Virus record (IMG/VR): IMGVR_UViG_3300036715_003254
Coordinates: 64,001-128,000 of that record
Source: a virus
DNA length: 64,000 bases
Direction: 5' to 3' (one strand)
The notes below the pieces were generated by a model. That model did not search any database. It was given only the letters and a program-made list of their open reading frames with translations, and was not told where the DNA came from. Positions within the stretch are counted from its first letter, which is position 1. Every line of letters begins with the position of its first letter. Positions 1 through 59,011 of this stretch are shown here, one piece after another. Both the position numbers and the translations under genes were made by a program.

Positions 1-425
1 TTCGTCAACCAACAGTAGCTTAAATCATAAATCACTTCTACATCGTCTCTATCGCCCCAATCGGCATACTTATAAACTTTTATCTGGAAAAAAGAATCGT
101 CTGGATAAGAGTCATATAAACATTTAAGAATTGAAGCGAACATTGTATGATAGGTATTTCCTTCCATTTCATAAAGTTCGAAAGAAAGCTGTACTTCTTT
201 TTGGCTAACATAACAAAAGTTAAAAAATCCAGATTGATATTCAGTCGCTAATGATGCAGTTATAGCGTCCAAATTGAAAGTTTTTACGCCTGGTATAGTT
301 ATTTTACTTCCAGGAGTTAAACCTACAGATTTTAATTTTTTCTCTCTAGGTAGAATTATATCGATCGAAAAATTATTTTTGAAAGAAAATCTATATAAAA
401 AACTATCGAGTGGATTTTTAGCCAT
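1..425 (-). CDS. Partial (runs off window) virion protein, possibly tail-tube-like or baseplate; not in ORF track
   Basis: ATG at 425 with GAGG RBS and AATAAATA promoter. Open frame MAKNPLDSFLYRFSFKNNFSIDIILP...YDLSYCWLT reaches the edge. Divergent from gp19. Confidence 0.6.
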   Translation of the reverse strand, partial: MAKNPLDSFLYRFSFKNNFSIDIILPREKKLKSVGLTPGSKITIPGVKTFNLDAITASLATEYQSGFFNFCYVSQKEVQLSFELYEMEGNTYHTMFASILKCLYDSYPDDSFFQIKVYKYADWGDRDDVEVIYDLSYCWLT

Positions 426-435
426 TTTTACCTCA

Positions 436-465
436 AATAAATATTGTGAACCGAAATTATTTATT
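436..465. promoter_or_regulatory. Pair of face-to-face T4-like late promoters
   Basis: AATAAATA at 436-443 (+) and 458-465 (-), a variant of T4 TATAAATA. The same motif precedes most structural genes here. Confidence 0.65.
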
Positions 466-477
466 TGGAGATAAAAA

Positions 478-984
478 ATGGCTTATGATATAGAAAATCT
501 AAAGACCACACTTGGTATAGGTGCAAAGAAGTATAGATTTAAATTAATACTTCCTCTTGAAGGTGCTGACAAAGCAGACTTGCTCGTTAAGACTGCGAAA
601 CTTCCTAATATAGAAATTGCTGAAACAGAAGTATTTTCAAAAGGAAGAAAACTAAAAATCAGAGGACACAGAAAATTCGATGGCGAATTAACTTGTACAT
701 TCCTTTCTGATGATGCTCATACATTAAGAAAAGCGTTTGAAACGATTATAGAAAAAACTGACTCATATACCACTAACATAGCCACAAATAGCCACGCAGA
801 TTATATGATTACAGGTATGACTCTTGTTCAGCTTGCAGGTGATGACACTGAAAAAGCAAAATGGGAATTTAAAAATGTTTGGGTAAAAACTGTTGGTGAA
901 ATTGAATTCACTTCAGAAGAAGGTGAAGAAATTATTGAGCTTCAGGTAACTTTCTGCTACTCAGACTACGTAAGAACGCTTTAA
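478..984 (+). CDS. gp19: Tail tube protein (T4 gp19-like)
   Basis: 168 aa; KTAKLP, GRKLKIRG.RKF, WEFKNVWVKTVGEIEF, VTFCYSDY motifs. Confidence 0.85.
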   Translation: MAYDIENLKTTLGIGAKKYRFKLILPLEGADKADLLVKTAKLPNIEIAETEVFSKGRKLKIRGHRKFDGELTCTFLSDDAHTLRKAFETIIEKTDSYTTNIATNSHADYMITGMTLVQLAGDDTEKAKWEFKNVWVKTVGEIEFTSEEGEEIIELQVTFCYSDYVRTL

Positions 985-988
985 TAAA

Positions 989-1022
989 AATGAGGAGAAT
1001 TATCTCTCCTCATTTCTTTTTT
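989..1022 (+). terminator. Intrinsic terminator
   Basis: ATGAGGAGA/TCTCCTCAT stem followed by a T-rich tract. Confidence 0.7.
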
Positions 1023-1048
1023 AGAAAATCTCTTATAAAGGAGTTTAT

Positions 1049-1246
1049 ACGAACAAATTTTTTAAAAAAATCAAATCTCAGAAAGGAATTAGTGATGTTG
1101 TAGTAGCACTTCTACTTGTATTAGTAGGTGTTGTTGCTGTAGCAGGTATTCAAGTATTCTTAAAAACACAATCTGCTACTGTTCAAACAGAAACAGCTTC
1201 TCATCTAAATAAAGTAGTATCAGAAAGCAACTCGACACAACAATAA
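1049..1246 (+). CDS. Small pilin-like protein with class III signal peptide, ACG start; not in ORF track
   Basis: AAGGAG-N5-ACG. 65 aa: NKFFKKIKSQKG|ISDVVVALLLVLVGVVAVAGIQVFL... Confidence 0.6.
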   Translation, partial: TNKFFKKIKSQKGISDVVVALLLVLVGVVAVAGIQVFLKTQSATVQTETASHLNKVVSESNSTQQ

Positions 1247-1264
1247 AGGGAATATTTCTTCCTT

Positions 1265-1432
1265 TTATTTTTCTTTTGTTATTTCTTCAGTTTCTTCTTC
1301 AATTTCTTTGTCTTTGTTTCTTTTAAACAATTTTGGTTTTTTCTTTTGGTCTTTCTTAGATGGATCTCCTGGATTAACTACATCACCAGAAACAGTTTCT
1401 TCTTGAAGTAATAAAAATTCAGACACTTTCAT
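1265..1432 (-). CDS. Small charged hypothetical protein (55 aa); not in ORF track
   Basis: MKVSEFLLLQEETVSGDVVNPGDP...; ATG abuts the gp13 stop codon. Confidence 0.55.
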   Translation of the reverse strand: MKVSEFLLLQEETVSGDVVNPGDPSKKDQKKKPKLFKRNKDKEIEEETEEITKEK

Positions 1433-2182
1433 TTATACCACCGTTATACCTGTTGGACAGCCGTAAAGTTTAGTTAGATCTTCATCAAGCTTACTTAGCG
1501 CTTCTTTAGCATCAGATATCATTCTATTGTATTCTATTTTAGAGCCGGAAACCAAACTTGCATCGTATTTACCTAGATTTGTTCCTTGTTGTAATAGAGC
1601 AAGATTATGTGCATAATTTTTTACCCAAGTATGATTATAAATGTCGTCTATATCTCCAGGAGTATACTGTAAAGCTAGATGTAAAAGTATATTTGGATAA
1701 CCTTGACTATAAACATCTTCTAGGAAATTTATTTCTTTATTAAAGGAATTCCAAGAATAGTTTGGACATCTTCTGAAAAATCTCATAATATGTTCATATT
1801 GAGCCATCATAGAGTAGACTTGAGTAATATCTATTTGGTACGATTGTCCCTGAGGATTGAAACCGAACATTTGAAACACAAAATCTGATTGAATAACAGT
1901 TCTATCTGGCATAGTGAACATAGAAGCGTTACCGACATAGATATTAAGCAAGGCTAGTGTTTTGTCAGGAAGTTTATACTTTCTAACTCCTTGTTGAACA
2001 GGAAGGAGATACACATCTTCTGTGTATCCCTCATAAGCAAAAGTGGTGAATTTGTTTATAGCTTCATTAATACAATCGGAAAGTTGAGATTCAGTTAACT
2101 CAACAGATATTATACCATCACCAAGTTTTCTTTTGATATATTTTTTAAGATCTACTTCCGATTGTATTTTTGAAAATGCCAT
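1433..2182 (-). CDS. gp13: Neck protein (T4 gp13-like)
   Basis: LKKYIKRKLG..ISVEL..SQL.DCI, WVKNYA...QQG.NLGKY, C-terminal PTGITV. Confidence 0.85.
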   Translation of the reverse strand: MAFSKIQSEVDLKKYIKRKLGDGIISVELTESQLSDCINEAINKFTTFAYEGYTEDVYLLPVQQGVRKYKLPDKTLALLNIYVGNASMFTMPDRTVIQSDFVFQMFGFNPQGQSYQIDITQVYSMMAQYEHIMRFFRRCPNYSWNSFNKEINFLEDVYSQGYPNILLHLALQYTPGDIDDIYNHTWVKNYAHNLALLQQGTNLGKYDASLVSGSKIEYNRMISDAKEALSKLDEDLTKLYGCPTGITVV

Positions 2183-2481
2183 TATTTTCTACCTTTTCTA
2201 CCTTTTGTTTCTTCGACAGCTTCTTCAGTAACAGTAATATCAGAAGATTCGTCTTTAAGAATTTCTTCGTCATTTTCTACAAATTTTTCAGTAACGGTTT
2301 CTTTTATTTCTTTAACAGCTTCTTCTACTTTTGTTTCAGCCGTTTCAACAAAACCTTCTACTTTCTCGAAAAAACTTGAAAAAACCTCTGTAAATGGAGA
2401 CTTAACATAAAGTTCTCCAGCTTTTATTTCTTGTGAAATGTGACCAATCGAAATGACTCTATCTACTAGCGCCTTATACAT
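2182..2481 (-). CDS. Acidic hypothetical protein
   Basis: 99 aa, GGAG RBS, coupled to gp13. Confidence 0.6.
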   Translation of the reverse strand: MYKALVDRVISIGHISQEIKAGELYVKSPFTEVFSSFFEKVEGFVETAETKVEEAVKEIKETVTEKFVENDEEILKDESSDITVTEEAVEETKGRKGRK

Positions 2482-2591
2482 TTTTCTCCTCTTTAAACCC
2501 CTCTAAACATAGAGGACATTTTGTATTAATTTCGTTGTTAGTTGGTTTTCCGAAAGCTTCCTCAATAGTAACACTTTCGCTCATATCGTAC

Positions 2592-2996
2592 TCAATTACC
2601 TTTTTTGATTTTTGAGTTTCCTGATTGTTTTTGTTCTCCAATTTCACTCCTTTCGTCGTTATTATTTATTTCATTAATTACGACTTCTGGTTCTGAAATT
2701 ATAGTTTCTGGTTTAGAAACAACTTCTTGTTCAGAAGTAGCAGTTTCTGGTTCTGAAATTATAGTTTCTGGTTTAGAAACAACTTCTTGTTCAGAAGTAG
2801 CAACTTCTGTTTCAGAAATTATAACCTTTGGTTCAGAAAAAGGAGCTTGAATATAAATTTTCTCGCCAACACAAAAGAAATTGTCTTTATAGATTCTAGT
2901 AATAACAGATTCTTCGACTAGAGAATCTTTTTTAAAGTCATATCTTCTTCCTTCGTGAACGATTATTTTGTTTTTCAATACTTTGAAAAGTTTCAT
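2592..2996 (-). CDS. Hypothetical protein with 20-aa repeats
   Basis: 134 aa, AAGGA RBS; ATSEQEVVSKPETIISEPE occurs twice. Confidence 0.65.
   Translation of the reverse strand: MKLFKVLKNKIIVHEGRRYDFKKDSLVEESVITRIYKDNFFCVGEKIYIQAPFSEPKVIISETEVATSEQEVVSKPETIISEPETATSEQEVVSKPETIISEPEVVINEINNNDERSEIGEQKQSGNSKIKKGN
2685..2822. repeat. 60-bp coding tandem repeat (~2.3 units)
   Basis: Lines starting at 2701 and 2761 are near-identical. Confidence 0.9.
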
Positions 2997-3011
2997 TAAA
3001 AATCCTTTAAT

Positions 3012-3042
3012 AAAGGAGAGGGCTTAAGCCCTCTCTTTTTTA
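3012..3042. terminator. Hairpin terminator
   Basis: GAGAGGGC-TTAA-GCCCTCTC flanked by A and T tracts. Confidence 0.7.
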
Positions 3043-6000
3043 GTAATCACCACCGAATACTGTAACAGCTATCGGAGAATTTGGACCATATGATGTAGCA
3101 GTACCAAGAGTAGCATAAACTCTCATACCACTATCAAGAGAAAGATTTGGATAATAGAAGAACTCACTTTGAGCGCCTGTCTCTGTAGTTGATATAGAAG
3201 GAACAGAGATTTCCGCTATCATTGAGTTGTTTTCTTTTATCTTGACATCTCCACCATTATTCAAGAAGAACCTTACTACTGTTGAACCTGTAGTAGATGT
3301 AGGTCTGACTTTGAATGTATCTAGTCTAGAACCATAAGGACCAGCAGCATAAACAAGTTTCATAGTATCATCAGAGTAACCTGCTATACCGAAATTGCTA
3401 CCAGCTAGAGTAGAAACTTTTCCTGTTGTCAAATCGATTTTTCTTACTTTATGATATTGTGAATCAAGAATAAAGAGTGCGTTTCTTGAAGCGCTATATT
3501 TAATATCAGCAATAGAACCGAATAGAGCAGCAGAAAGACCACCACTACCATCAACAAAACCAGATTGACCAAAAGGATTTCCTGCAAAGTAAGCAGATAT
3601 TCCTGTAGCATCATCGACAGTTTTAATTTTTGTTACATCTGAGACATACCAAGTTGAACCGACTTTTGTCATACCTATTGGTGTAGACTGATAAGTCGCT
3701 TTTTTACCCATACAATTTCCAGGATAAGAACCGACACCAAGTTCCATTGTGAGAGTTTTACTAGAAATATCTACTTTTGAAACATAAGCTGAGTTTCCTA
3801 TTAGGAATTGAGTTGGACTAATCCAAGTAATTTGACTATGAATTGTCAAATTCAATGGAACTTGAGCAATATTACCTATACCGTAACTGTTTGACTTACC
3901 ACTAGTATTTACTAGTGTAGAAACAAGACCGCTTTGAATATCCATAACTCTTATTTTTGAATATCCAACATCAACTATATAAAGGTTTTCTTTAGACGCA
4001 TCAAGAGAAAGTTTAGCTGGATTATAGAAACTTGCTGAAGTTCCATTTCCATCTAAGAACCCTTGTCCGCTACCTGCTATAGTTGTAGTATAACCATTAT
4101 ATGGATTTACTTTTCTTATTCTGTAACCTGAATAATCAGCTACATACAAGAAGTTACCATCGAAAGCTATACCTGCAGGATAGTTGAATTTCGATTTTGG
4201 ACCATCAGAAGCAATACCCCAACCAGTACCATCACTAGAAGATCCAGATGTATCACCAGCAATAGTAGTTAAGAAACCTGTTGAAAGTTTCATTTTTCTA
4301 ATAACATTGTTACCGCTATCAGCTATAAACATATTTCCGTTGCCATCAAGAACAAATTGTCTTGGATTATTCATTCTTGCTATAAGGTTTACACCATCAG
4401 CATAACCAGAGTTACCTGTACCTGCCCAAGTTTGAACCATAACATTAAGTTGAGGATATACTCTTCTTATTTTATAGTTAGATTGGTCAGCAACATATAG
4501 ACTAGTTCCGTCAGCAGTACAAACAATACCTCTCGGATAGTTGAATTTAGTTGAAGTATTATAACCGTCAACGTTACCTGGATATGTTGTATCAGAAGTT
4601 GAGTTATTAGGTGGAGTACCAGCAATAAGAAGTACTGTACAAGTATCTATGTCAATTCTTCTAATAACGTGGTTACTGTATTCTGCAACATAAAGCTCTC
4701 TGTTATTTGATACACAAATGCCCCAAGGATTGTTAAATCTAGTATTGGCTTGACCAGTACCATCTATATAACCTTTTGTACCGTCACCAGCAAATACAGA
4801 AACTCTCTTATCAGACAAGCCGTATTTTCTAATTCTATGACCGCTGTATTCTGTAACATAAAGGTTACCTTCAAATTCTACCATATGCATTGGACCATTA
4901 ATAGCTGCAGAGTCACCGATACCGTCAACAGTAGAAGCTGAACCGTTTCCGAAAAGTGTACCGACTTTACCAGTGGCTTTGTCGATATATCTTACCCTAT
5001 TGTTATTAGTATCAGCTACATAAATTGTAGATTTATCGCTTGACCAAGCTAGACCATTAGGATTGTTAAACATAGCTTCACTAGGTTTACCATCAGCAAA
5101 ACCAGCAACACCTTTACCAGCAAATGTTGTTATTTGTCCGTTAGATATTTTTCTAATTCTGTTATTTGAACTATCAGCAACATAAATATCGCCATTTGTG
5201 TCGACTACTATACCCATTGGATAGTTAAACATACCGACTGCGGCCTTTCCTTCAGTATAACCAGAATAACCTGAACCTGCAACAACAGAAGTCAGTTTTG
5301 TGGTTTCGTCATATACTCTTACTTTATAGTTTGCATAATCAGCAAAATAAACTTTTCCAGATTTATAGAAAGGAGTTAGAACGCCGTTTCCTACTCTTGT
5401 AAAGTTTCCGTAAGTGTCATTTGAACCAGAAGTACCATCACCCAGAACAGTATCAACTAGATTAGTTGAAATGTCGAGTCTTCTCATTCTAGCGTCGCCT
5501 GAGTTCCAGTTACCTATATAAAGTTTTGAACCATCTTCGCTTAGAGATAGGTATGAAGGATATGTAATCAATGGTCTTAGTCTTACGCCGTCGTTAGATG
5601 CTCCAGAACCAGAGTATTTTGTACCACCAGCATAAGTCTCAACATAATAAGAGTTAACATCAAAAGATCTAACAGTTGTAACTGCTGTAGAGATGTTTGA
5701 GTTTGTAAAGTAAATCAACTTATCATTTGAGTCATAAATTGCTCCAGGAATATGTGCGATTGTAAACGATCCGTATTGTCCGTCAGTTGAACCATAAGAG
5801 TTAGAAGAGTTAATTGTTTGACAATCGTCAGTAGCGAAGCTTATTCTTCTAACATAAGGTTGTCCGAAGAACCACACTGTGTTCGCATCTTCCCATACAA
5901 TATTAGAAATACTATCATTGTATGTACCTGTTTCAGAGAATGTAGTTTTATAAGCTGGACAGTTAGAAGCTGAACCAGAAGCTCCGTGTGTTCCAAGGAA

Positions 6001-9000
6001 TTGACTAAATTCACCTGTTGTAGTATCGTATTTTGTGATAGTATAATTTGCTCTATTATAAGCGTAGATATTGCCATCAAGACCAACAGAGAAATAACCA
6101 GAAGAAAGACCGAATGAACCTAAAGCTGTTTTAGAGCTTGTCATTTTTGCTGGTGATGTAGAATACGAATCAGCAAATGATGAGATAATTGTTGAAACAA
6201 AGTTTTTACTAATATCGTATTTCACAAGTCCAAGGCTTGAAGCAGTAATAGCTAGGAATTTATCTTTGTCAATACTGCAAAGTTTACCTATACCTGTAGC
6301 AGTAACATAATCTACGTGACCTGTTTGAGAAGAAACTCCTGAACCTGTATAAGAGAATACTTGTGGATATGGAAGGAAGCCAAGATCAATTACTCTTACT
6401 ACATTGTTTCCTGTATCAGAAACATAAACTTTTTTGTTTTTAGAGTCAACAATGATACCGTTCATAGTTGATGAGAATCTAGAAGAAAGTAGATTTCCAT
6501 TTATTACAGAACCGTTACCACTACCAGCAATTGTAATTACTTGTTGAGTAGCTTCATTGTATTTTCTAACAGCAGCATTACTATCGCCTGAAGAATAAGC
6601 TGTAAACCAAAGATCTTGATTTGTAGCATCATAAGCCATAGCCATAACAGTACCAACAGAAGCGTTTATACCTTCACCTGTACCCATTGAAGTTTGACCA
6701 TTACCACAAGCTATTGAAACAATTCCTGTAGCTAGATCTATTCTTCTGATTACATTGTTTCCAGCATCAGCAACATATAGACAGTTAGCTCCGGAAGAGT
6801 AAACTATGTCATTAAGTGTAGTACTGAATGTAGCATTTGCTCCAGTGCCGTTTTCAAAACCAGTCATTACTGAACCGGCTATTGTGGTAACAATACCGTT
6901 TTGAGTGATTTTTCTTACAGTAGAAGAGTCACAAACATAGAAATTTGTGCCATCAGTTGTAATTCCAGTAATAGATGTGAATGTAGGCGGAATAGACAAA
7001 TAACCAACTTCAGATGTTGCTGTATATGATGATGTAGATGAACCCATTCCTAGTAGAATAACTCTATTATCTGAAGAAGAAAGAAGTATTAAGCTATCTA
7101 CTATACCTGCTGTATCAAGATTATTTCCTTGAATATAACTTACAGTATTGTTAGAAATAATAGCAAAGAAAACTAAAGCCGATGCTTTACCATTTCCTGT
7201 TTGTCCACCAACAAGAACTACATAACCGTTAGAAAGAACTAAAGATTTATGATAAGCCATAGTGTACGGAAGGTTTGTTACTGATGTCCAGTTAATAGTA
7301 TCACTTCCTAAAACACCTATATAAGCTTCACTTTGGCAGTTACCAGAGTACATACCGCCTGTAACAAAAATTCTACCGTCAGGAAGAGTAATAGCAGATT
7401 TACCTGTGACGCCTCCGCCAGAGTTAGGAAGAGCGCTAAACAATGATCCCCAAGAAACATCACTACCAGTATATTTACCTATAACAGAGCTTTTGCTTGA
7501 CAAGTAAACAACATTTGAACCTGATACAACAAGAAGACCGTCAGCTGTACCATTAGGACAAGCTGAAATAGATGTCCAAGTAATTTTATTATCGCTAGAA
7601 ACAGTACCTATATAAGAACCGCAAGCAGTTTTATTACTTGAATCAGTATAACCGCCTAGTACTATAATTTTTCCATCAGGAAGAGTAGCTACACTGTGTT
7701 CAATTACACCAGCTTCAGGGAAGTCAGTTGAAGCAACCCAAGTAGTACTATTACCAGAAACAGTTCCTATTTTAACAGTTTTTATACCGTTAGTACCGTC
7801 AGTTGAACCGCCTATTGAAACAATTCTGCCATCAGGAAGTTTAGTTGTTTTCGCTGGATAATTTGAGAATGTGTCATAATTATCAGTAGGAGTTACTAGA
7901 TTGATTTGAGCACCATCTTGTAGACCGCTTAGAGCACTACCAGCAAGAATACTAATATCACCTGTTGCTTGATTCCAAAGTTTTACAGATCTAACATCAG
8001 CTATAGCAGTCACATTTTTAGAAATGAAAGATAATCCTCTTAAAGCTGATTGGAAAGTAGGAATACTTGCTGTAGGACTATAGTATCCGTAGCAGTCATT
8101 TTGTGTATTATTGTATGATAGTTGAACAGCTGAACCAGTAGAAGTATCAACAACTCTGAATGTATCGTGAGTTTGTACATATATCTTACCGGCTGAATAA
8201 ACCATTGAGTTCTTAGTACCAGCAGTGTAGTAATTATTTGAACTTGCTGTTGAGCTACAAGTATTTGTAGTTTGTGTACTAGTATTATAAGAACCAGAAA
8301 GTGTAGATTCTGTTGTCCAACCTGTACCAGAGTATTTCAAAATACAGTTAGCAGAAAGAGTGAAAACATTTGTTCCGTCTGTACAAACTGAGAACATAGG
8401 TTTTGTAGAAATAGTTGATACAGTACCATCAGAAGCTATTCTTCTTAGACCGTTTTTATTATCAGCTACAAATACATCTCCGCCTATTTTACAAATATTG
8501 TTACCGTTTAGAGGAAGTTGTCCTGTAGCATTATAACTACTGAATACTGCTTGTTGACCATACTTACCATCTAGACTTCCAGGTTGAGCAAAAATACTAC
8601 CTGTTACGTGTGATACAAAGCCTGTAGAAGGATTTATTTTTCTAACTCTGTGGTTATAAGCATCACCAACATAAACTGTACCATCAGAAGCACAAGCAAC
8701 ACCTATAGGACTGTTAAACGCTGCAAGTTTTCTTATACCATCAGCAGAACCATAAGTACCATTTATACCTGCGTATGTTTCGACGTCGCCAGAAGTCAAA
8801 TCCATTCTTCTAATTACGTGGTTTGTAGTATCAGCCATAAACAAGTATTGACCTGTAGAATCAACAAATAGAGAATAAACTGAACCTATAAGAGCGTTAT
8901 AAGAACCACCTCCTGGACCTTGACCATCTTGGTTACCAGCAGAAGATTGTGAGCTAGTATTACCAGCTATTGTCACAACATTTCCAGCATTTCCGGAAGC

Positions 9001-12000
9001 ATCCAAAGGAATTCTTCTTATCAAATAGTTACCACCGTCAGCAACATATAAGTTTGCTTCATTTGCGTCAACAGCAATGTCATAAACAGCTTTAAATCTA
9101 GCAGTAGCTGTAGGAGCTCCATCTGCATAACCAGAAGAGTTATATGAACCAGCTATTGTAGTAACATTTGGATTATTTGGAAGACCTGTTATTTTTCTTA
9201 CTGTATAACCACCGCTATCAACAAAGTAGAATACACCAGAAGCACCAAGACAACCACCTGAAGGGTTATTACAAGTAGCGTTAGATCCTGCTCCGTCTGC
9301 ACCACCAGCTGTACCAACATTCGCTCCAGAAGCACCAGCAATTGTTGAAGTTGAATAAGAGTTATTTATAGCCGCAGATCTAATTCTGTTACCAGCAGCT
9401 TCACAAATATACATAGTCGAATTGTCTGGAGTAAGAATAACATCAGTCGGACCATTCAATCTTGAAGAACCTTGACTACCATCAGCATAACCAGCTGTAG
9501 CGTTTGGAGCAGCAGCACCAACAACAGTAGTAGTAGCACCAGTAGCTATAGTTACCTTTCTAATTGCGTGGTTACCTGTATCAGCAACATATAGATAATT
9601 TCCGTCGTTTGTTACTGCTACACCTTGAGGACCATTAAATGCTGAACCAGCACCGTTAGTACCATCAGTAAAACCAGAAGTACCAGTACCAGAAATAGTA
9701 GAAACAGCGCCTGTACTCATATCAATTTTTCTAATTTTGTGGTTACTAGAGTCGGCTACATAAAGTATACTACCGTATTGAGCAATACCTTTATGGCTGT
9801 TAAATGACGCCGGAGTACCAGATGAATATCCTTGGAAGTTTCCTGAAGATCCAGAAGTAAGACCAGAATATGTAGAAACTTGACCTGTAGCAATTACAAT
9901 TCTTCTGATTGCGTTATTTCCTGTATCAGCAACTAGTAGAGAATCTGAAAGTGGACCTTGACCTAGACAAATTTGTTTAGGTGAATTAAATTTTGCTGAA
10001 GTAGAGTTACCATCAACAAAACCACTAGCTCCACCAGCAAGAGTTTCAACCCTAGCAGTAGCAACATCTATTTTTCTAATCGCATTGTTTCCGCTATCAG
10101 TAACATAAAGAGTATTAAAGTCTTTTGAGAAACATAGAGCAACAGGAGTATTAAATGAAGCGTTTAGACCTTCACCATTAACAAAACCGCTAGAACCTGT
10201 ACCAGCAAAAGTTATAGTATTACCTGTAGCTAATTCTACTCTTCTTATTTTGTTATTGGCAGTATCAGCAACATACATATATTTAGAAGCTGAATCAACA
10301 ACAACATTATATGGAGAGTTAAATGACGCTTGAATTCCAACAGCAGGACCATCAGCAAAACCAGAAGCACCTGAACCAGCAACAGAAGTTATAATACCAG
10401 TTTTATTATCTAGTTTTCTTACTTTATTTCCATCTGTAAAATAAACTGCATTATTTGCTTCGTCTAGATAACAGAAATTTGGAGAAGCAAGAATAGCTTG
10501 AGAATATTGACCAACACCATCCATAGAACCAGTGTTACCGGTTCCAACAATAGTTGAAAGAGCGTAACCTGAAGTTGAAACTCTTCTGATTTTATTTGAT
10601 TTTGTATCAGCAACATAGATATAATCAGCAGTTGGAGATACACAAAGACCTAGAGGACCATTAAGAGTACCATTAGTACCTGTACTGTTATCAGTAGAAC
10701 CAGCAGAACCAGAACCAGCAATTGTATAAACAGCACCAGTTTGAGTCATAATTTTTCTGATTTTATTATTACCTGTATCAGTAACATATAGTATATTACC
10801 AGATTTATCACAAGTAATATCTGTAGGTGAATAGAAGCTAGCATTTAGACCTGTACCGTCAGTACCACCTATTGCACCAGAAGGAGAACCAGCAAGAGTT
10901 GTAGTAGCACCATTTAGTGGATTTACTTTTCTAATTCTTTGGTTACCTGTATCAGCAACATATAGATATTGGTCGTCACAAGTAATGCCTGTTGGTTGGA
11001 AGAATGAAACAGCGCTTCCAGTGTTACCATCAACATTATATTGAGGTCTGTTTATACCTGCATTATCTTGATTTAATTGAGAAACAGCATTTAGACCAGT
11101 ACCAGCTACAGTAGCAACCACCCATTGTGAAAGAGTAGAGTTATAAGTTAGACTTCTAATTTTGTTTGAGTTAGTATCTGCAACATATAGAACGCCGTTT
11201 AGTTGAGTAATACCTTGAGGATAGTTAAATGTAGCAGAAAGACCATTTCCATCAAGAGAAGAATTATCTCCAGAACCAGCGATTGTAGTAACAGTATTAT
11301 TACTCAAATCTATTTGTCTAATCATATTATTACCAGTATCAGCAACAAATAGTTTTGTATTAGTTTGGTCTAGACAAATACCTTTAGGAAGGTTAAATGT
11401 TGCGCTTGTACCAGCTCCGTTTAGAGAACCGAATTGTCCTGTACCAGCAATAGTAGAAACCACACCAGTAGCAATATCGTATTTTCTTATTTTGTTGTTT
11501 TTAGTATCAGTAAAGTATACTGTAGTACCATCAGAACATACGCCTCTAGGTTCATTAACTTCTGAAGCCATAAAGTAACCAGCACCATCAGAGTAAGAAG
11601 CATTTCCATCTCCAGCCATAGTAGAAATGAAGAAGTTATTATTTAGCTCAAGTCTTCTTATTGCGTGGTTTGTTGTATCTGAGAAATATAGACAGTTTGA
11701 AGTTGCATCATATTCCATATGTGAAATGACACCAAAACTTGCTGCCATACCAAAGCCGTCAGTAAGATTTGAGTTTCCGTTTCCGGCTATCAACATAATA
11801 GTATTTGTTATTGGGTCATATCTTTTGATTTTATATGTGTTAGCATCAGCTATATAGTAATATCTACCATCATAAGCCGTAGCAGATACTAGACCAAAAG
11901 AAGCAGAATAAGGAATAGAAATACCATCTCCATAAGAAACTATACCAGCACCAGCAAGAAGATTTACTTCTTTTGTTAGAGTATTAATAGCTCTTATTTT

Positions 12001-13677
12001 TGAGTTTCCTGTATCAGCAACAAATGCAGTTTTACTGTCTTGAGATACAAAAATATCAAAAGGATTGAAGAATGTTGCTAGAACACCTATACCATCAGTA
12101 GAACCAGCAGTACCTGAACCATAAACTGAGAAAACAGTATTACTTCTAAGGTCTATTACTCTTATTTTGTTGTTATTGACATCAGCAACATAAAGTTGTT
12201 CAAATCCGTCAAAAGCTATTCCTGAAGGATAGTTAAATGTAGCAGCATTTACTGGACCATCATAAGAACCAGCAGAACCTGTACCAGCAACAGTAGTTAC
12301 GCCGAAATTTGCTGATTTTAGATCTATCTTTCTAATTTTGTTAGCAGAAGCATCAGCAACAAAAAGGAATTGATTTGTTTCGTCTAATGCTAGAGAAGTC
12401 AATTGACTGAATGTAGCATTTAGACCTTTTTCAGAGTCTGTAGATCCGAATGTTCCAACAACACCAGCTATAGTAGAAACAACATTATTAGTAAGATCTA
12501 TTCTTCTTACAACATTGTTATTTTGGTCAGCAACATAAGCCATATTTGTTGTTTTATCTATACAGATATCAACAGGACTAGCAAATTGAGCTGAAGCAAT
12601 ATCTCCGTCAAGATAACCAGCAGAAGAAATACCTGCTACAGTAGTAGCTGAGCCATCAGCAACACTTACTTTTCTTATACAGTTATTACCCATATCAGCA
12701 ACATAAATGAAACCTGAATAGTAGAATAGTCCTCTAGGTTGATTGAATTTAACCTTTGAAGCGATTCCATCAACATATCCTGGAGTTCCACCAATACCGC
12801 AAAGAGTAATAGTTTTATTATTTGTTTGGTCTATTTTTCTTATACAGTGATTAGCTGTATCAGCAACATAAACATAAGTACCATCGTATGTTACACCTTT
12901 CGGAGTATTAAACATAGCTATTTTTTGATCACCTATATCAGTGTCACAGAAAATAGATGTTTGTGAAATATTTCCAGAGAATGGTCTTACTTCTCCTGTA
13001 GCAACAATATATTTTACTATTGTTCCGACTTGAGTTATATAAAGATCTGTACCATCAGTAGTAACATATCTTGGAGAGTTAAGTTGAGCATTAGTACCAA
13101 ATCCAGGTTTAAAACCAGCATTTCCAGAACCAGCAAGAGTTAAAACTTCAAGAGTAGTAAGGTCAAGAACTCTTAGTTTATGTTGTGCTTGTTGAACAAA
13201 GTAAAGTTTTCCATTCAAATAAGTTATACTTACACCAGATTGAATAGTAGCTGATATTCCTATACCATCTTGAGAACTAGAAGAACCAGAACCAGCAAGA
13301 GTAATTACCTCTCTACTATTTAAATCAATTTGTCTGATTCTACAACCAGCATTTTCTATAACATACAGTTTGTCTGTACCGTTTGTTGTTATACCATAAG
13401 GGTTGTTGAATGAAGCATTTATTCCGAAACCGTCTATTGAAGCATTAGAACCAGAGCCGAAATATGTTTCAGTCATTCCAGTATCCATATCAACAGTTCT
13501 AATTCTGTGGTTATTAGAATCCGCAATGTACAATTTATTACCAACAATTACTTGAGCTGTTGGAGTATTAAAAAGTGCAGTTGCAAAAGAACCATCTTTA
13601 TTAGTGTTAGCTGAATAAAGATTGTTTACTGTTGATTTTGGAACTGAAGGAAAAATTGGAGCAGTGTTTGCACTCAT
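3040..13677 (-). CDS. Giant (3545 aa) NHL-repeat multi-beta-propeller virion/adhesin protein with internal Kelch-like domain
   Basis: More than 40 repeats of F..P.G.....LYVADT.N..IRKI....V.T.AG.G..G..DG. Kelch/galactose-oxidase blades (LPDGRI...GG) at about 7000-7900. Termini MSANTAPIFP and VTVFGGDY. Confidence 0.85.
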   Translation of the reverse strand: MSANTAPIFPSVPKSTVNNLYSANTNKDGSFATALFNTPTAQVIVGNKLYIADSNNHRIRTVDMDTGMTETYFGSGSNASIDGFGINASFNNPYGITTNGTDKLYVIENAGCRIRQIDLNSREVITLAGSGSSSSQDGIGISATIQSGVSITYLNGKLYFVQQAQHKLRVLDLTTLEVLTLAGSGNAGFKPGFGTNAQLNSPRYVTTDGTDLYITQVGTIVKYIVATGEVRPFSGNISQTSIFCDTDIGDQKIAMFNTPKGVTYDGTYVYVADTANHCIRKIDQTNNKTITLCGIGGTPGYVDGIASKVKFNQPRGLFYYSGFIYVADMGNNCIRKVSVADGSATTVAGISSAGYLDGDIASAQFASPVDICIDKTTNMAYVADQNNNVVRRIDLTNNVVSTIAGVVGTFGSTDSEKGLNATFSQLTSLALDETNQFLFVADASANKIRKIDLKSANFGVTTVAGTGSAGSYDGPVNAATFNYPSGIAFDGFEQLYVADVNNNKIRVIDLRSNTVFSVYGSGTAGSTDGIGVLATFFNPFDIFVSQDSKTAFVADTGNSKIRAINTLTKEVNLLAGAGIVSYGDGISIPYSASFGLVSATAYDGRYYYIADANTYKIKRYDPITNTIMLIAGNGNSNLTDGFGMAASFGVISHMEYDATSNCLYFSDTTNHAIRRLELNNNFFISTMAGDGNASYSDGAGYFMASEVNEPRGVCSDGTTVYFTDTKNNKIRKYDIATGVVSTIAGTGQFGSLNGAGTSATFNLPKGICLDQTNTKLFVADTGNNMIRQIDLSNNTVTTIAGSGDNSSLDGNGLSATFNYPQGITQLNGVLYVADTNSNKIRSLTYNSTLSQWVVATVAGTGLNAVSQLNQDNAGINRPQYNVDGNTGSAVSFFQPTGITCDDQYLYVADTGNQRIRKVNPLNGATTTLAGSPSGAIGGTDGTGLNASFYSPTDITCDKSGNILYVTDTGNNKIRKIMTQTGAVYTIAGSGSAGSTDNSTGTNGTLNGPLGLCVSPTADYIYVADTKSNKIRRVSTSGYALSTIVGTGNTGSMDGVGQYSQAILASPNFCYLDEANNAVYFTDGNKVRKLDNKTGIITSVAGSGASGFADGPAVGIQASFNSPYNVVVDSASKYMYVADTANNKIRRVELATGNTITFAGTGSSGFVNGEGLNASFNTPVALCFSKDFNTLYVTDSGNNAIRKIDVATARVETLAGGASGFVDGNSTSAKFNSPKQICLGQGPLSDSLLVADTGNNAIRRIVIATGQVSTYSGLTSGSSGNFQGYSSGTPASFNSHKGIAQYGSILYVADSSNHKIRKIDMSTGAVSTISGTGTSGFTDGTNGAGSAFNGPQGVAVTNDGNYLYVADTGNHAIRKVTIATGATTTVVGAAAPNATAGYADGSQGSSRLNGPTDVILTPDNSTMYICEAAGNRIRSAAINNSYSTSTIAGASGANVGTAGGADGAGSNATCNNPSGGCLGASGVFYFVDSGGYTVRKITGLPNNPNVTTIAGSYNSSGYADGAPTATARFKAVYDIAVDANEANLYVADGGNYLIRRIPLDASGNAGNVVTIAGNTSSQSSAGNQDGQGPGGGSYNALIGSVYSLFVDSTGQYLFMADTTNHVIRRMDLTSGDVETYAGINGTYGSADGIRKLAAFNSPIGVACASDGTVYVGDAYNHRVRKINPSTGFVSHVTGSIFAQPGSLDGKYGQQAVFSSYNATGQLPLNGNNICKIGGDVFVADNKNGLRRIASDGTVSTISTKPMFSVCTDGTNVFTLSANCILKYSGTGWTTESTLSGSYNTSTQTTNTCSSTASSNNYYTAGTKNSMVYSAGKIYVQTHDTFRVVDTSTGSAVQLSYNNTQNDCYGYYSPTASIPTFQSALRGLSFISKNVTAIADVRSVKLWNQATGDISILAGSALSGLQDGAQINLVTPTDNYDTFSNYPAKTTKLPDGRIVSIGGSTDGTNGIKTVKIGTVSGNSTTWVASTDFPEAGVIEHSVATLPDGKIIVLGGYTDSSNKTACGSYIGTVSSDNKITWTSISACPNGTADGLLVVSGSNVVYLSSKSSVIGKYTGSDVSWGSLFSALPNSGGGVTGKSAITLPDGRIFVTGGMYSGNCQSEAYIGVLGSDTINWTSVTNLPYTMAYHKSLVLSNGYVVLVGGQTGNGKASALVFFAIISNNTVSYIQGNNLDTAGIVDSLILLSSSDNRVILLGMGSSTSSYTATSEVGYLSIPPTFTSITGITTDGTNFYVCDSSTVRKITQNGIVTTIAGSVMTGFENGTGANATFSTTLNDIVYSSGANCLYVADAGNNVIRRIDLATGIVSIACGNGQTSMGTGEGINASVGTVMAMAYDATNQDLWFTAYSSGDSNAAVRKYNEATQQVITIAGSGNGSVINGNLLSSRFSSTMNGIIVDSKNKKVYVSDTGNNVVRVIDLGFLPYPQVFSYTGSGVSSQTGHVDYVTATGIGKLCSIDKDKFLAITASSLGLVKYDISKNFVSTIISSFADSYSTSPAKMTSSKTALGSFGLSSGYFSVGLDGNIYAYNRANYTITKYDTTTGEFSQFLGTHGASGSASNCPAYKTTFSETGTYNDSISNIVWEDANTVWFFGQPYVRRISFATDDCQTINSSNSYGSTDGQYGSFTIAHIPGAIYDSNDKLIYFTNSNISTAVTTVRSFDVNSYYVETYAGGTKYSGSGASNDGVRLRPLITYPSYLSLSEDGSKLYIGNWNSGDARMRRLDISTNLVDTVLGDGTSGSNDTYGNFTRVGNGVLTPFYKSGKVYFADYANYKVRVYDETTKLTSVVAGSGYSGYTEGKAAVGMFNYPMGIVVDTNGDIYVADSSNNRIRKISNGQITTFAGKGVAGFADGKPSEAMFNNPNGLAWSSDKSTIYVADTNNNRVRYIDKATGKVGTLFGNGSASTVDGIGDSAAINGPMHMVEFEGNLYVTEYSGHRIRKYGLSDKRVSVFAGDGTKGYIDGTGQANTRFNNPWGICVSNNRELYVAEYSNHVIRRIDIDTCTVLLIAGTPPNNSTSDTTYPGNVDGYNTSTKFNYPRGIVCTADGTSLYVADQSNYKIRRVYPQLNVMVQTWAGTGNSGYADGVNLIARMNNPRQFVLDGNGNMFIADSGNNVIRKMKLSTGFLTTIAGDTSGSSSDGTGWGIASDGPKSKFNYPAGIAFDGNFLYVADYSGYRIRKVNPYNGYTTTIAGSGQGFLDGNGTSASFYNPAKLSLDASKENLYIVDVGYSKIRVMDIQSGLVSTLVNTSGKSNSYGIGNIAQVPLNLTIHSQITWISPTQFLIGNSAYVSKVDISSKTLTMELGVGSYPGNCMGKKATYQSTPIGMTKVGSTWYVSDVTKIKTVDDATGISAYFAGNPFGQSGFVDGSGGLSAALFGSIADIKYSASRNALFILDSQYHKVRKIDLTTGKVSTLAGSNFGIAGYSDDTMKLVYAAGPYGSRLDTFKVRPTSTTGSTVVRFFLNNGGDVKIKENNSMIAEISVPSISTTETGAQSEFFYYPNLSLDSGMRVYATLGTATSYGPNSPIAVTVFGGDY

Positions 13678-13703
13678 ATATATTTTTCTCCTATAAAGTT
13701 AAG

Positions 13704-14114
13704 TTAAAAACCACCATAATTGGTAGCAAGAAGTTTGTTTACCGTCATTGAACTGTTTACAACATTTTGATACTCTTCTCCAAGACCTATTTTCTCCCAT
13801 TCGTTTTTATTCAATACATTTAGTGTAGTATTAGTAGAATTGATTTTTTTATAAATCGCTCCATCAAAGACTACTAGAGTATTTACTCTATAAAATGTAT
13901 TTGGTTTAAAAAATGGGATAGAAGTTTGAATAAAAGAAGTACCAGCATCAATTGCGTCGCCTAAAGTAGTGTCACCATTTAGACCAGCGTTTGAAATTTT
14001 TTGATAAGTACAGCCTGACGATACAACAAATATCAACTTACCATTAGGAATTTTATTAATTCCTGTTTCAGTATGATCTTTGAGATACCAAATTGGTTCT
14101 ACATTGTATGTCAT
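13704..14114 (-). CDS. Short fibre/adaptor protein with shared N-terminal anchor domain
   Basis: N-terminus YN..P.W...D...TGI.K.P is shared with 14662 and 18333 ORFs; ends NYGGF. Confidence 0.7.
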   Translation of the reverse strand: MTYNVEPIWYLKDHTETGINKIPNGKLIFVVSSGCTYQKISNAGLNGDTTLGDAIDAGTSFIQTSIPFFKPNTFYRVNTLVVFDGAIYKKINSTNTTLNVLNKNEWEKIGLGEEYQNVVNSSMTVNKLLATNYGGF

Positions 14115-14268: not shown

Positions 14269-14562
14269 TTATACGCCCCAAATACCATAAGCTCTAAATA
14301 CAACTCCGGCAGCAGAAGCACTTACTATAACACTCTCTCCAGAAACTACTATAAGATCTGTTCTTTCTAAAGTATCGTTTGCCGATATTGTTGTTCCTGA
14401 TTCTATTTTATCTCCGCCTATAGTTATATTAATAGTAACAGAATCAGAAGTCGTATTACAAACATTTATAGCCATAGTAGCAGTTTTACCTACAGGCACT
14501 TTACACAAAACTGTATCTGTATTCGCCGCAGGTATTACACTTCCAAATTTTATTCCAGCCAT
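14269..14562 (-). CDS. Small beta-rich virion structural protein
   Basis: 97 aa; PAANTDT....VP.GKTAT..INVCN...LERT....GE pattern typical of small phage structural proteins; GGAGG RBS, TATAAATA upstream. Confidence 0.65.
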   Translation of the reverse strand: MAGIKFGSVIPAANTDTVLCKVPVGKTATMAINVCNTTSDSVTINITIGGDKIESGTTISANDTLERTDLIVVSGESVIVSASAAGVVFRAYGIWGV

Positions 14563-14661: not shown

Positions 14662-15774
14662 TTAAAATATACTTTCTATTGCTATTTCATCACCTTTAGA
14701 TAGAGCATCATTGAATGTTAAAGTAGTTCCATCTACAGACCAGTTTGAAGAAGCAAATCTAATACCGTTTTTATACACTACAAAATAAGAACCTTTTGGT
14801 CCATTTAGAGTGACTTTAGTTTGTCCATCGTCGGCTACTAATTCTTGAATATACGTAGGTATTGTACCGCCTGCAGTTATTAGACCTTTGCTGTTGACTG
14901 TAACTGAAGTATAAGTACCGGCTGTAACCACATTAGGTAGTGTAGCTGTAGCGCTAATATCACTTGAACCGTCAAAGGCCGGTGTAGTAAAGGAAATATC
15001 GCCAGTAACAGTTAAAACTCTACCAGTAGCCAATTTAGTCGCAGGAGTACTAGAAATAGCGCTAGTAACAAATTTTGTGGTGGCAATTTGATCTGTATTT
15101 GTTCCCGAATCGGCAGTTGGTGCAGTTGGTGTTCCTGTTAGAGCAGGAGACGCCAATGGAGCTTTAGTACCAACAACAGCAGTTAAAGCAGCGGCAGCTG
15201 ACTCATCATTTGCTAGTTGGTCGGCTATTTCTTTTAGTGTATCTAGTGTTGCCGGTGCGGAATTTACTAGATTAGCAATTGCTGTATCTGTATAAGACTT
15301 AGATGATGCTAATGTAGAAGTATCTTTACCATCTACTTCAGTTTTAGTATAAGCATCAGTAATACCGTAACCAGCAATAGTTGTAGGTTTATTTAGTATT
15401 TGAGCCGCACCACTAGATGCAGTCCAATCAGAGCTTACTTGCGGTCTAGCATTATAGAAAGGTTGAGAACTTATCCAAGTTTTTGTGTCAGCGATAGCAC
15501 CAGTAACGAAAGCTGTAGTAGCGATTTGGTCTGTATTTGTTCCAGCTGGAGCAGTTGGAGCGGTAGGAGTGTCGCCGCCAGCAATACATTTAAAAACGCT
15601 TGAGTTATTTATAACATCAGATATTTTAGTATCAGCTGTTATATTATCGTTACTTATTTTTGTAAAGAATTGTTTAGTACTCTGAATGTATATTAGTTTA
15701 AGCAGAGGTACTTTGTTTATACCTGTTTGATTTACATCATTAAAATACCAAACTGGCGATAAATTGTAAGACAT
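14662..15774 (-). CDS. Tail fibre protein
   Basis: APLASPALTGTPTAPTA..GTNTDQIATT.FV repeat (twice), LVNSAPATLDTLKEIAD, AGTYTSVTVNSKGLITAG. Confidence 0.8.
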   Translation of the reverse strand: MSYNLSPVWYFNDVNQTGINKVPLLKLIYIQSTKQFFTKISNDNITADTKISDVINNSSVFKCIAGGDTPTAPTAPAGTNTDQIATTAFVTGAIADTKTWISSQPFYNARPQVSSDWTASSGAAQILNKPTTIAGYGITDAYTKTEVDGKDTSTLASSKSYTDTAIANLVNSAPATLDTLKEIADQLANDESAAAALTAVVGTKAPLASPALTGTPTAPTADSGTNTDQIATTKFVTSAISSTPATKLATGRVLTVTGDISFTTPAFDGSSDISATATLPNVVTAGTYTSVTVNSKGLITAGGTIPTYIQELVADDGQTKVTLNGPKGSYFVVYKNGIRFASSNWSVDGTTLTFNDALSKGDEIAIESIF

Positions 15775-17286: not shown

Positions 17287-17940
17287 TTATAGTATTTTTT
17301 GTACTGTACAAGTGCAACTTACTTTATCACTTGATGATGATTGAACTGATAATCTTTTTTGATTCCCGAAGTAAAATGTGTAACTAGGTTCATTATTCTC
17401 CGTCTTATATGTAGACTTATTTACACCAACTATTTGAATATCCTCTGAAGAAGAGGCATCAAAATGAACCGCAAAAACAAATGAAAAAACTTGCTCATAA
17501 GCAACATTATAAATGTCAAACCCGCGAACATTGGCGATATACGTTCCTCCTGATAAAGCTGGGGAAATAAATTGTTTTGAACTACAATCAGCATCGGATA
17601 ATGTAGAAATTATTGGAGTAAATAAATTGCTAGCGCTTATACTTCCATTAACCTGTAACTTATCAACACCATTATCTGTTGTTGTTCCTACTAATAAATT
17701 AACACCAGTGTCATATACAACACTATTTGAATTAATAGTTACTATGTGTTTTCCATTACAAGCAATACCGATATTGCCTTCTGCAATATGGTAGAAACCT
17801 GTATCATTTGAACTATCATTTTGAAATACTAGTCCTGGGGCGATATTCGTACCTTCCGGAATAAAAACCTGACCAGTAAATACTGGCGAGTTGATGTTTG
17901 CTTTTACATCATTAAGCTTATCTAGTGAATACTTAATCAT
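17287..17940 (-). CDS. Short tail fibre/spike protein
   Basis: KANINSPVFTG, APGL.F...DTGFY, LLVGTTTDNGVDKLQVNGSI. Confidence 0.7.
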   Translation of the reverse strand: MIKYSLDKLNDVKANINSPVFTGQVFIPEGTNIAPGLVFQNDSSNDTGFYHIAEGNIGIACNGKHIVTINSNSVVYDTGVNLLVGTTTDNGVDKLQVNGSISASNLFTPIISTLSDADCSSKQFISPALSGGTYIANVRGFDIYNVAYEQVFSFVFAVHFDASSSEDIQIVGVNKSTYKTENNEPSYTFYFGNQKRLSVQSSSSDKVSCTCTVQKIL

Positions 17941-18332: not shown

Positions 18333-19757
18333 CTATGCAAGCGATACTTCGTATGCAGTTAATGCTCTATCATAAATTCGCAAATTTGTAATATGACCAT
18401 ACCAAAGTCTTCCTATCATAATACTAGAAGCAGTATCGCCTAAGTCGTTATATTGTTGTAATCTAGATTCTTTAGCCAATAATACTCCATTTTTGTAAAT
18501 ACTAGTTTGATTGTTTTTACTATCAGAAATTGCACAAATCCTTTTAGTAACAGTATCAAATGGAATATATGTATAAGCCAGCATATTAGTATTTTTACCA
18601 CCGTGACAATGAAAATCAGTACCATCTCCGTAGCCAAATATCAACGCGCCGTCGCCATTACTATTAATTGCGATTATAGAGCTCCAATCGCCGTCTTTTT
18701 TTCCTTTTATATCAAAGTCAGCAATAACGGTTCTCGAATCATATACGGACGGAAAGTTACCTTCTAGAGTGGCACTCAACATATCAGCTGCTCTAGTAAC
18801 AGTGCTAGAAGTTGTAGAAATATAGGATGTAGTAAATGGCAACGCTTCTAATTGTGCTCCATAGATGTTTACACCATTTCCTGTTTTATCTGTCGAAGAG
18901 TAGCTGTATATAACATTAACATATTTACGGTCAGAGGTAGTGACAGTGAAAGTCATACTAAGTCTTACCCACCCATTAGCTAATATTTGTACATTTTTAT
19001 CTTGTAGGTTATTGTTTTGATCTGTTAAAACTCCTGTGTCGAAGTTATAACTCAAATCACGTGAAGTACCGTCTGAGAAGAAAAATGACGGATACATTAT
19101 TCTTATTATAGAGTCTTCTGCTTTTTGAGCAAATATAGAAGCAGTATATGTTGTCCCAGCAGTTAACGAAAAATATGAAATATATATATTTTCCTCTGAC
19201 CCAGTTGTAGTTTTATAAAAATGATAAGCAGAGTTTGCTACACCGTCAGGACCAGTAACATTTTGAGTAATAGCAGAATTTTGAGTACTCCATTGTTCGA
19301 ATTGGTTTGAATAAGAAAATAGATTCGTACTATTACCTTCGTTCAAATAACCTTCTTTTTCAAATCTAGGTACATCTATACCAGCTGTTTTTAGAACACC
19401 ATATCTATCTATATAAGTAGCAGTTGAAGCTCTTGAGAATGTAACACTACCTGTACCAGACCTCATAGCCAAAGAGTTTTTTAGTGGAAGATCTAGCAAA
19501 GGATTATGGATATTACCAATAGCCATTTGAAGATCAGAATTGTTAGCTTTTAGGTCAACTTCTGCTGCATTCTTAAAATTACTCGGATTTCTTAAAAGGT
19601 CAGTTACAGTAGAAGTACTTGTTAAACCGTCATTACTTAACTTTTTAAACATTTTTCCAGTACTTTGGATATGTATTAACCTGTTTAGAGGCACTTTGTC
19701 AATGCCAGTTTGATTTACATCAGAAAATTCCCAAATGGGAGATTTGTTATATGCCAT
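18333..19757 (-). CDS. Fibre/spike protein with LamG/concanavalin-like domain (start revised to 19757)
   Basis: AAGGA RBS before MAYNKSPIW; TFSRASTATYID...PRFE..G.L.EG.STNL; GHI.NLRIYDRALT. Confidence 0.8.
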   Translation of the reverse strand: MAYNKSPIWEFSDVNQTGIDKVPLNRLIHIQSTGKMFKKLSNDGLTSTSTVTDLLRNPSNFKNAAEVDLKANNSDLQMAIGNIHNPLLDLPLKNSLAMRSGTGSVTFSRASTATYIDRYGVLKTAGIDVPRFEKEGYLNEGNSTNLFSYSNQFEQWSTQNSAITQNVTGPDGVANSAYHFYKTTTGSEENIYISYFSLTAGTTYTASIFAQKAEDSIIRIMYPSFFFSDGTSRDLSYNFDTGVLTDQNNNLQDKNVQILANGWVRLSMTFTVTTSDRKYVNVIYSYSSTDKTGNGVNIYGAQLEALPFTTSYISTTSSTVTRAADMLSATLEGNFPSVYDSRTVIADFDIKGKKDGDWSSIIAINSNGDGALIFGYGDGTDFHCHGGKNTNMLAYTYIPFDTVTKRICAISDSKNNQTSIYKNGVLLAKESRLQQYNDLGDTASSIMIGRLWYGHITNLRIYDRALTAYEVSLA

Positions 19758-19838
19758 TTTATTTCCTTCCTCAAAAATTTTTCGCGTCGCGACTTGGTAT
19801 GTCACATTCCGTGAGGAATTTTACGCGATATATTTATT
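19758..19838 (-). promoter_or_regulatory. Late promoter plus structured 5' leader (copy B)
   Basis: AATAAATA at 19831-19838; three-way junction, homologous to copy A. Confidence 0.6.
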
Positions 19839-36150: not shown

Positions 36151-36270
36151 GTGAACTGCCTACTCCTTAAAGGAGTCGGCTTCCTAACTAACAGCTTCCA
36201 GCGAAGCTGAAACACGAAAGGCTTTGCGTTTATATAAGTCCGCAAGGTTGGTTCCCAACCCAAACGACTT
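36131..36270 (-). ncRNA. omega-RNA/right end of tnpB-1
   Basis: Overlaps the tnpB 3' end; ends GGCAGTTCAC at 36151; putative guide TCTATATTGACTCTTTCTTA. Confidence 0.8.
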
Positions 36271-58889: not shown

Positions 58890-59011
58890 AGAAAGCCTTT
58901 TTATTTTTATTATACTGAATTTAGGTTTAAAATTTGGGAGGAATAAATAAGAAGTATCGTTCGCGAGATGGCAGTCTCCAACGACTCTATGATAAAAGGA
59001 GTATCACAGCA

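Follow-up and report, generated by a model that had tools for sequence, protein, structure and literature searches.

A small jelly-roll phage protein interrupted in one loop by about 3,400 residues of NHL and Kelch-type propeller

Introduction

Trimeric jelly-roll cement proteins have been described in phages KHP40 (7dou) and KHP30 (7dn2) and, as more distant cases, in the BPP-1, Pam1 and GP4 capsid-entry chains (3j4u, 7eel, 8h89). TNF/C1q-like and other jelly-roll domains are found in fibres and tail tips, such as the C-terminus of the Bdellovibrio Bd2133 fibre, the tail fibres of Agrobacterium phage 7-7-1, lambda tail-tip chain residues 72-207 and the C-terminus of the KP1 baseplate cup. Viral jelly-roll capsid proteins may also bear projection domains in their loops, birnavirus VP2 being an example, with insertions of ~100-200 residues. 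A separate group of folds is formed by the six-bladed NHL propellers (PF01436; teneurin NHL, PF25021) and by the Kelch propellers of KLHL7, LZTR1, YjhT and galactose oxidase. Here we analyse a viral gene in which a jelly roll and such propellers meet in one polypeptide. It lies on the minus strand of a 64,000-nt stretch (the window), bases 64001-128000 of the IMG/VR record IMGVR_UViG_3300036715_003254, and encodes a protein of 3,545 amino acids (aa), hereafter the giant. The ends of the giant belong to a small jelly-roll family, and everything between them is propeller.

The giant differs from each of these systems. Its family is 6-9% identical to the cement proteins, with no relation at the sequence level, and its genes are in tail-fibre neighbourhoods instead of beside the capsid gene; we know of no member of those cement families with a comparable loop insertion. 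The fibre and tail-tip jelly rolls end long proteins or sit within them, whereas here the jelly roll is mostly the whole protein and the 'fibre' is inserted inside it. Birnavirus VP2, which is among the Foldseek matches of the family, resembles the proposed arrangement in having an assembling jelly-roll base with the surface function on loop insertions, but the giant carries 3,406 inserted residues, with a further domain set into them. The giant shares the blade motif of NHL propellers, with Pfam scores far above the cut-offs, yet it has ~54 blades in one chain, the whole array is a loop insertion, and the gene is in a phage structural block. Unlike the known Kelch propellers, its Kelch-type domain is embedded in an NHL array and scores just below the Pfam Kelch cut-offs. 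In the open-access literature that we searched we found no description of this giant architecture, of such a phage NHL protein or of the small family.

Results

Window positions 3040-13677 (minus strand) hold one uninterrupted open frame (3,545 codons and a stop), the longest open reading frame (ORF) of the viral record (138,481 bp, rated 94% complete). We consider it nearly certain that its product (P0001) is a small jelly-roll domain split in one loop by ~3,400 residues of propeller. The parts are, in the direction of transcription:

13688-13692, minus strand: ribosome-binding site AGGAG, read from the sequence, 10 nt 5' of the ATG at 13677
13588-13677, minus strand: scaffold piece 1, residues 1-30 (MSANTAPIFP...ANTNKDGS); family profile positions 1-31, 21.4 bits, E 1.3e-7; strand beta1 and the ANT..DG loop
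7900-13587, minus strand: NHL array part 1, residues 31-1926; ~33 blades, the last three degenerate (Pfam NHL/TEN_NHL and blade profile)
6994-7899, minus strand: Kelch-type six-bladed propeller, residues ~1927-2228, after the 'DG' of an NHL blade
3370-6993, minus strand: NHL array part 2, residues 2229-3436; ~21 blades, some degenerate (Pfam and blade profile)
3043-3369, minus strand: scaffold piece 2, residues 3437-3545 (DTMKLVYAAG...VTVFGGDY); family profile positions 32-136, 105.6 bits, E 1.4e-33; strands beta2-beta8
3016-3035, minus strand: terminator-like hairpin of 8 pairs (6 G-C) with a T-rich tail, 5 nt past the stop

The two ends are the two parts of one small protein. Searched with phmmer, the last 115 residues of the giant have 233 relatives (cluster representatives) at E<=1e-3; almost all are 125-165 aa long, and the matches start at about residue 33 of these short proteins. 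Their first 30 residues follow M-a-A-N-T-x-P-I-F...A-N-T-x-x-D-G-T-G-T, which is the pattern of the giant N-terminus. We made a 139-position profile from 129 stand-alone proteins (125-165 aa), none of them chosen via the N-terminus. It matches the giant in two pieces that are exactly complementary, with the split at profile position 31/32. The family sequence ANTa.DGT/GTv.lvFTAG (the slash marks the split) thus corresponds in the giant to ANTNKDGS (3,406 residues) DTMKLVYAAG. Against all six-frame ORFs of the genome, piece 1 is matched with E 1.1e-5, and a six-frame search of the whole 138-kb genome matched only the two pieces of the giant, no uninterrupted family copy being present. A model made from family alignment A1 gave the same outcome across the genome. 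The giant retains 26 of the 33 family columns conserved at >=70%, including all eight of piece 1; the conserved residues examined were M1, P7, the ANT..D loop, R64, NNG 68-70, NN 78-79 and the GGDY end, and the columns lost are 32, 39, 56, 60, 76, 81 and 91. The first-pass annotation of this DNA, made from the sequence alone, had suggested that non-repeat termini surround the propeller chain, that the termini joined together resemble a small protein of ~135 aa, and that the blades enter at a DG loop. These suggestions are borne out by residues 1-30 and 3437-3545, by the abundance of short homologues, by the complementary profile (hidden Markov model) match and by entry of the chain after ANTNKDGS; the C-terminal piece has 109 aa, not ~105.

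Among 153 retrieved proteins that we classified, 125 are uninterrupted stand-alone proteins (131-169 aa, median 141), a form from which the giant departs by its 3,406-residue interruption. The others are N-truncated fragments (14), tandem duplications (5), giants (P0004 and P0005), proteins with an insert near profile position 74-86 (P0138 and P0154), proteins matching by the C-part only (P0037, and P0093 with an insert at 31/32), and one each with an N-terminal extension, with a C-terminal extension and of another kind. Since 125 of the 153 are uninterrupted, insertion into a small protein is the parsimonious direction, and the giant is, judged by sequence, a derived, insert-bearing member of the small jelly-roll family. 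P0004 is the protein of the giant, differing at two residues. The same 31/32 split is found in the 3,227-aa orthologue P0005 and in P0093, a 492-aa protein whose insert of ~360 residues may be BNR/sialidase-like according to an Atlas lead (scores 0.85-0.89). A search for longer homologues gave one protein, P0154. The family thus accepts inserts at two loops.

Between the giant and P0005 the scaffold is the best conserved part: 27 of 30 residues are identical in piece 1 and 65% in piece 2, against 36-44% in the propellers. A conserved scaffold with faster-evolving propellers is the pattern that would be expected of an anchor with an outward-facing part. Family members are present across diverse phage contigs and contigs of metagenome-assembled genomes (MAGs). 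Searched in the viral contig collection, the C-terminus of the giant had no relatives, and P0005 compared with metagenome contigs found generic NHL proteins only. Neither Pfam nor PHROGs has a family for the two terminal pieces or for 10 short members; the family profile found nothing credible in a PDB sequence search (best E 0.057), and ESM Atlas matches were viral 'hypothetical' clusters only. A cyanophage S-TIM5 'virion structural protein' in BFVD was considered as a link to virions and rejected: the entire S-TIM5 record is without a family match at E<=1, so it gives the family no proteomic support. Divergent members also occur on Planctomycetota MAG contigs (L044-L051), several per MAG (four contigs in one MAG, two in each of two others); these are without the NNG motif, match profile residues 1-104 only and may be either prophage or cellular genes.

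The insert consists of ~54 NHL blades, a count that includes degenerate blades judged by eye, and one Kelch-type propeller. Pfam identifies NHL (PF01436) with E 1.8e-96 and 312.1 bits (cut-off 20), and TEN_NHL with E 8.9e-55 and 186 bits. A custom blade profile of 53 positions gives ~50 scoring blades with a period of ~56 aa from residue ~38 to 3438. The chain enters directly after the scaffold DG with the usual inter-blade linker ('DGS-FATALFNTP'), and it leaves at the DG-equivalent of a blade ('AGYSDD/TMKLVYAAG'). Blade units thus fit the insert without remainder and keep the phase of the scaffold motif. From the number of blades, nine six-bladed NHL propellers would be expected.

Residues ~1927-2228 are not NHL. 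Their homologues carry Kelch Pfam families (best E 4e-29) and the segment itself classifies as a six-bladed Kelch fold, with Pfam Kelch models below the gathering cut-off on the giant (Kelch_6, 24.3 against 25.3; Glyoxal_oxid_N, 31.5 against 37.5; Kelch_2, 17.6 against 21.3). The domain is flanked by '...LAGSALSGLQDG' and 'PPTFTSITGITTDG...'; it follows the DG of a blade unit, just as the array as a whole follows the DG of the scaffold. This agrees with the earlier suggestion of a Kelch-like domain at the equivalent DG loop between NHL blades, as does the blade profile. P0005 lacks the domain: aligned to the giant, it has nothing opposite residues 1975-2231. A structure model of residues 1755-2412 had a mean predicted local distance difference test score (pLDDT) of 45.5, with NHL flanks below 50 and unusable; the Kelch domain may be nested in one NHL propeller (three blades before it and three after) or may lie between two propellers.

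The phage that carries the giant is a distant T4-like myovirus; it has genes for topoisomerase II, a split DNA polymerase, a tail sheath and a tail tube, together with gp23-like capsid genes. In the isolate collection its major capsid protein is matched best by those of Campylobacter phages, at only ~25% identity. The phage is uncultured and has been sampled only in sediment and microbial-mat metagenomes. Contigs from four sequencing runs of these habitats cover the giant gene, three of the runs being a possible source sample; one contig covers it entirely with zero differences, and both scaffold/insert junctions are covered by the one run that is not flagged as a possible source. 'Joint' coverage rows were disregarded, their sides being only 20 nt and derived from other contigs. 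The listed runs include none that holds RNA. Tandem Repeats Finder (TRF) detected no DNA tandem repeats within the gene, and its GC content at third codon positions (GC3) is 0.156, like that of other late genes (0.13-0.22). Multi-run coverage of the gene and its junctions, together with the absence of tandem repeats, makes an assembly artefact unlikely; with the GC3 value added, the ORF is real, old and at home in its genome.

An AlphaFold2 model of the family, computed with 121 sequences, is an eight-stranded jelly roll (pLDDT 94.5; predicted template modelling score, pTM, 0.86), with strands at residues 12-17, 35-39, 45-54, 61-68, 79-87, 101-109, 114-119 and 127-135. The break caused by the insertion is in the beta1-beta2 loop, between residues 18 and 34 of the model, so the N-terminal 30 residues of the giant supply beta1 and the conserved ANT..DG loop. 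A three-copy model passed its controls, scoring 0.78 by the interaction prediction score from aligned errors (ipSAE), against 0.00 for the best control; the runs share at least 79% of contacts and the partner pLDDT is at least 88. In calibration, 20 of 30 proteins solved as one-chain pairs attained this ipSAE mark, as did 1 of 23 solved as single chains. Each copy uses two faces, one with beta1 (residues 12-20) and the other with conserved-loop residues 24-29; the entry point of the insert, residues 30-34, does not appear in the listed interface contacts. The model supports self-association.

On the minus strand the giant follows three tail-fibre-type genes (18333-19805, 17287-17940 and 14662-15774) and precedes a neck/adaptor-like gene (1433-2182) of the same block. 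Just outside the window are the genes of a baseplate hub, of a tape-measure protein (1,638 aa), of a tube cap and of gp5-like hub and gp25/gp6-like wedge proteins. The gene is thus located in a tail-fibre/baseplate block, and capsid genes are ~12 kb from it within the window.

Short members have a similar setting. Among 50,697 isolate phage records they are present in 10 only, all Rhodobacter capsulatus phages. Phages of this kind are described as RcC-cluster siphophages in the consulted part of PMC8601537, a part that says nothing on the family gene. In RcOceanus the family member is gene 22; directly upstream is gene 21 (DUF2793), and downstream are gene 23 (Gly_rich_2) and a holin gene. DUF2793 is, according to PMC5026251, a domain of the tail-fibre/tailspike-like RcGTA protein Rcc00171. 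The IMG/VR and MAG loci have the short-member gene after tail-fibre, hub or tail-protein genes, and in every locus examined it is found with tail-fibre/hub and lysis genes, not beside the major capsid gene. In 20 of the 33 loci, a set in which four loci have less than 100 nt downstream and several are near-duplicates, the next gene is of Gly_rich_2 (PF21722) type and lysis genes come after it. The two genes of this pair are 0-25 nt apart or overlap, and the partner, of ~280-345 aa, matches phrog_2295 (loci L001, L004, L006-L010, L013-L016, L018-L023, L040, L042 and L044). No paper on the Gly_rich_2 domain was found in the open-access literature searched.

Discussion

We moderately favour an explanation in which a jelly-roll anchor presents the propeller chain as a host binder. 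The family is normally a stand-alone protein of ~140 aa whose gene closes the distal end of a tail module. In the giant, both ends of one polypeptide would fold together into the small eight-stranded jelly roll, with the beta1-beta2 loop (ANT..DGT/GT) carrying the 3,406-residue insertion of NHL blades and Kelch-type propeller. The jelly roll would act as an oligomerising, virion-docking anchor; it would probably be trimeric, with the tail or baseplate as its probable site. Since the chain leaves and returns at one point, its ~ten propellers would form a closed loop or bouquet, a multivalent binder of ligands on the host surface or in the matrix. Fold, self-association, gene position and conservation pattern are what suggest this function, and for the small protein it is the position of its gene that suggests a structural role. 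That the giant is a structural protein of the virion surface seems likely to us; for the tail as its site, instead of the head, we have only a slight preference, and we are somewhat more inclined to see binding than catalysis in the propellers. The inserts of other members, at the same loop (P0093) or at a second one (P0138 and P0154), fit the 'display scaffold' that the first-pass annotation had in mind.

Several observations weigh against parts of this explanation. Blade similarity is flat by lag (30-34% identity), without the lag-6 or lag-7 signal of a six-bladed partition, and the segment model, with its low-scoring NHL flanks, gives that partition no support. The copy number of three was chosen, not derived, the calibration used two copies and the alignment was self-supplied; given the chosen number and the two-copy calibration, the model argues for self-association and not for a particular stoichiometry. 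All 10 isolate-phage copies are annotated 'hypothetical protein', none placed in the virion by experiment or annotation. Furthermore, no Gly_rich_2 gene adjoins the giant, and a search of the genome with phrog_2295 and the Gly-rich profile gave a weak match only, ~40 kb away (E 8.7e-4).

The jelly roll could instead be a capsid cement or decoration protein, the giant then being a head-borne fibre that works like Hoc. The cement proteins have a jelly roll as well, but such folds are common and the identity is in the 6-9% range. Moreover, in the loci examined the family gene keeps company with tail-fibre/hub and lysis genes, the capsid genes of the window are distant, and a T4-like head with a 3,545-aa subunit on each of its cement sites would be extreme in steric terms. 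We regard a head location of this kind as unlikely. Pfam reports SGL, arylesterase and lactonase matches on the giant as well, a further point against a pure binder, and the propellers might be mainly catalytic (lactonase, SGL-type or oxidase-like), acting on the host envelope or on signalling molecules. These families belong to the same six-bladed propeller clan as NHL, however; their matches track the blade motif of NHL, which itself scores far above them at 312 bits. Mainly catalytic propellers appear quite improbable to us.

The likeness of the termini to the small family could also be artefactual, whether through chimeric assembly, through chance similarity of a 30-residue N-terminus or through derivation of the small family from the giant by deletion. 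The N-terminal match is indeed short, at 21.4 bits. Nevertheless, much speaks against an artefact: the significance of this match against the six-frame ORFs; its boundary, exactly complementary to piece 2; the recurrence of the split in P0005 and P0093; the contigs of four runs over both junctions, with one contig spanning the gene and one run not flagged as a source; and the many uninterrupted members in diverse phage and MAG contigs. We give an artefact of any of these kinds very little credence, and retain the split jelly roll carrying a propeller chain.

Proteins with inserted domains are common, but among protein architectures an insertion 25 times the size of the domain that hosts it is extreme. 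The insertion of the giant is in turn broken by a further domain, and the architecture has been kept in at least two diverged phages (P0001/P0004 and P0005). A widespread and unannotated phage family is also defined (233 cluster representatives; no model in Pfam or PHROGs), for which there are now a fold of high confidence, a probable oligomeric state and a map of the loops that tolerate inserts, while the recognisable pair of jelly-roll and Gly_rich_2 genes is added to the unannotated end of many tail modules. If the small protein is a virion-surface anchor, it would be a natural display scaffold, potentially useful for engineering phage host range or for surface display, and the giant would illustrate how phages of sediments and microbial mats dispense with a fibrous shaft in their very large multivalent binders. 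It is tempting to go further, although we hold this only tentatively, and to see in the jelly roll an evolvable 'socket' of tailed phages: a self-assembling, probably trimeric plug of the virion surface whose beta1-beta2 loop and second loop (~position 74) accept foreign domains. In this phage lineage the first loop would have grown to a closed loop of ~3,400 residues with about ten propellers, among the largest single-loop insertions described for any protein, and a bouquet of three such loops would replace the conventional rod-like fibre.

Other features of the window

Directly downstream of the giant is a 134-aa ORF (2592-2996, minus strand) with a tandem peptide repeat (SEPE.../TSEQEVVSKPETIISEPE) and no Pfam or PHROG match. 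Upstream, three proteins of 136, 370 and 490 aa (13704-14114, 14662-15774 and 18333-19805, all minus strand) share an N-terminal module of ~65 aa, M-x-YN-x-x-P-[IV]-W...TGI[ND]K[IV]P, that matches phrog_13044 positions 1-74. This is probably a common attachment domain with different distal parts, the 370-aa protein having a tail-fibre repeat region and the 490-aa one a Laminin_G_3/ConA-like lectin domain. The true start of the latter ORF is probably an internal Met, 15 codons past the GTG. A 97-aa ORF between these genes (14269-14562, minus strand) has weak matches to the tail-fibre PHROGs phrog_693 and phrog_11338; it was considered as a relative of the scaffold family and found to be unrelated (hhalign probability 0.2).

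The replication region contains two copies of a 469-aa transposase (36184-37593 and 51571-52980, minus strand; phrog_506, E 1e-75 to 1e-77). The DNA polymerase is encoded in two minus-strand ORFs, 57750-58889 and 59728-61290, which match phrog_262 at positions 7-497 and 494-850; between them, on the plus strand, lies an ORF of 265 aa (58934-59731).

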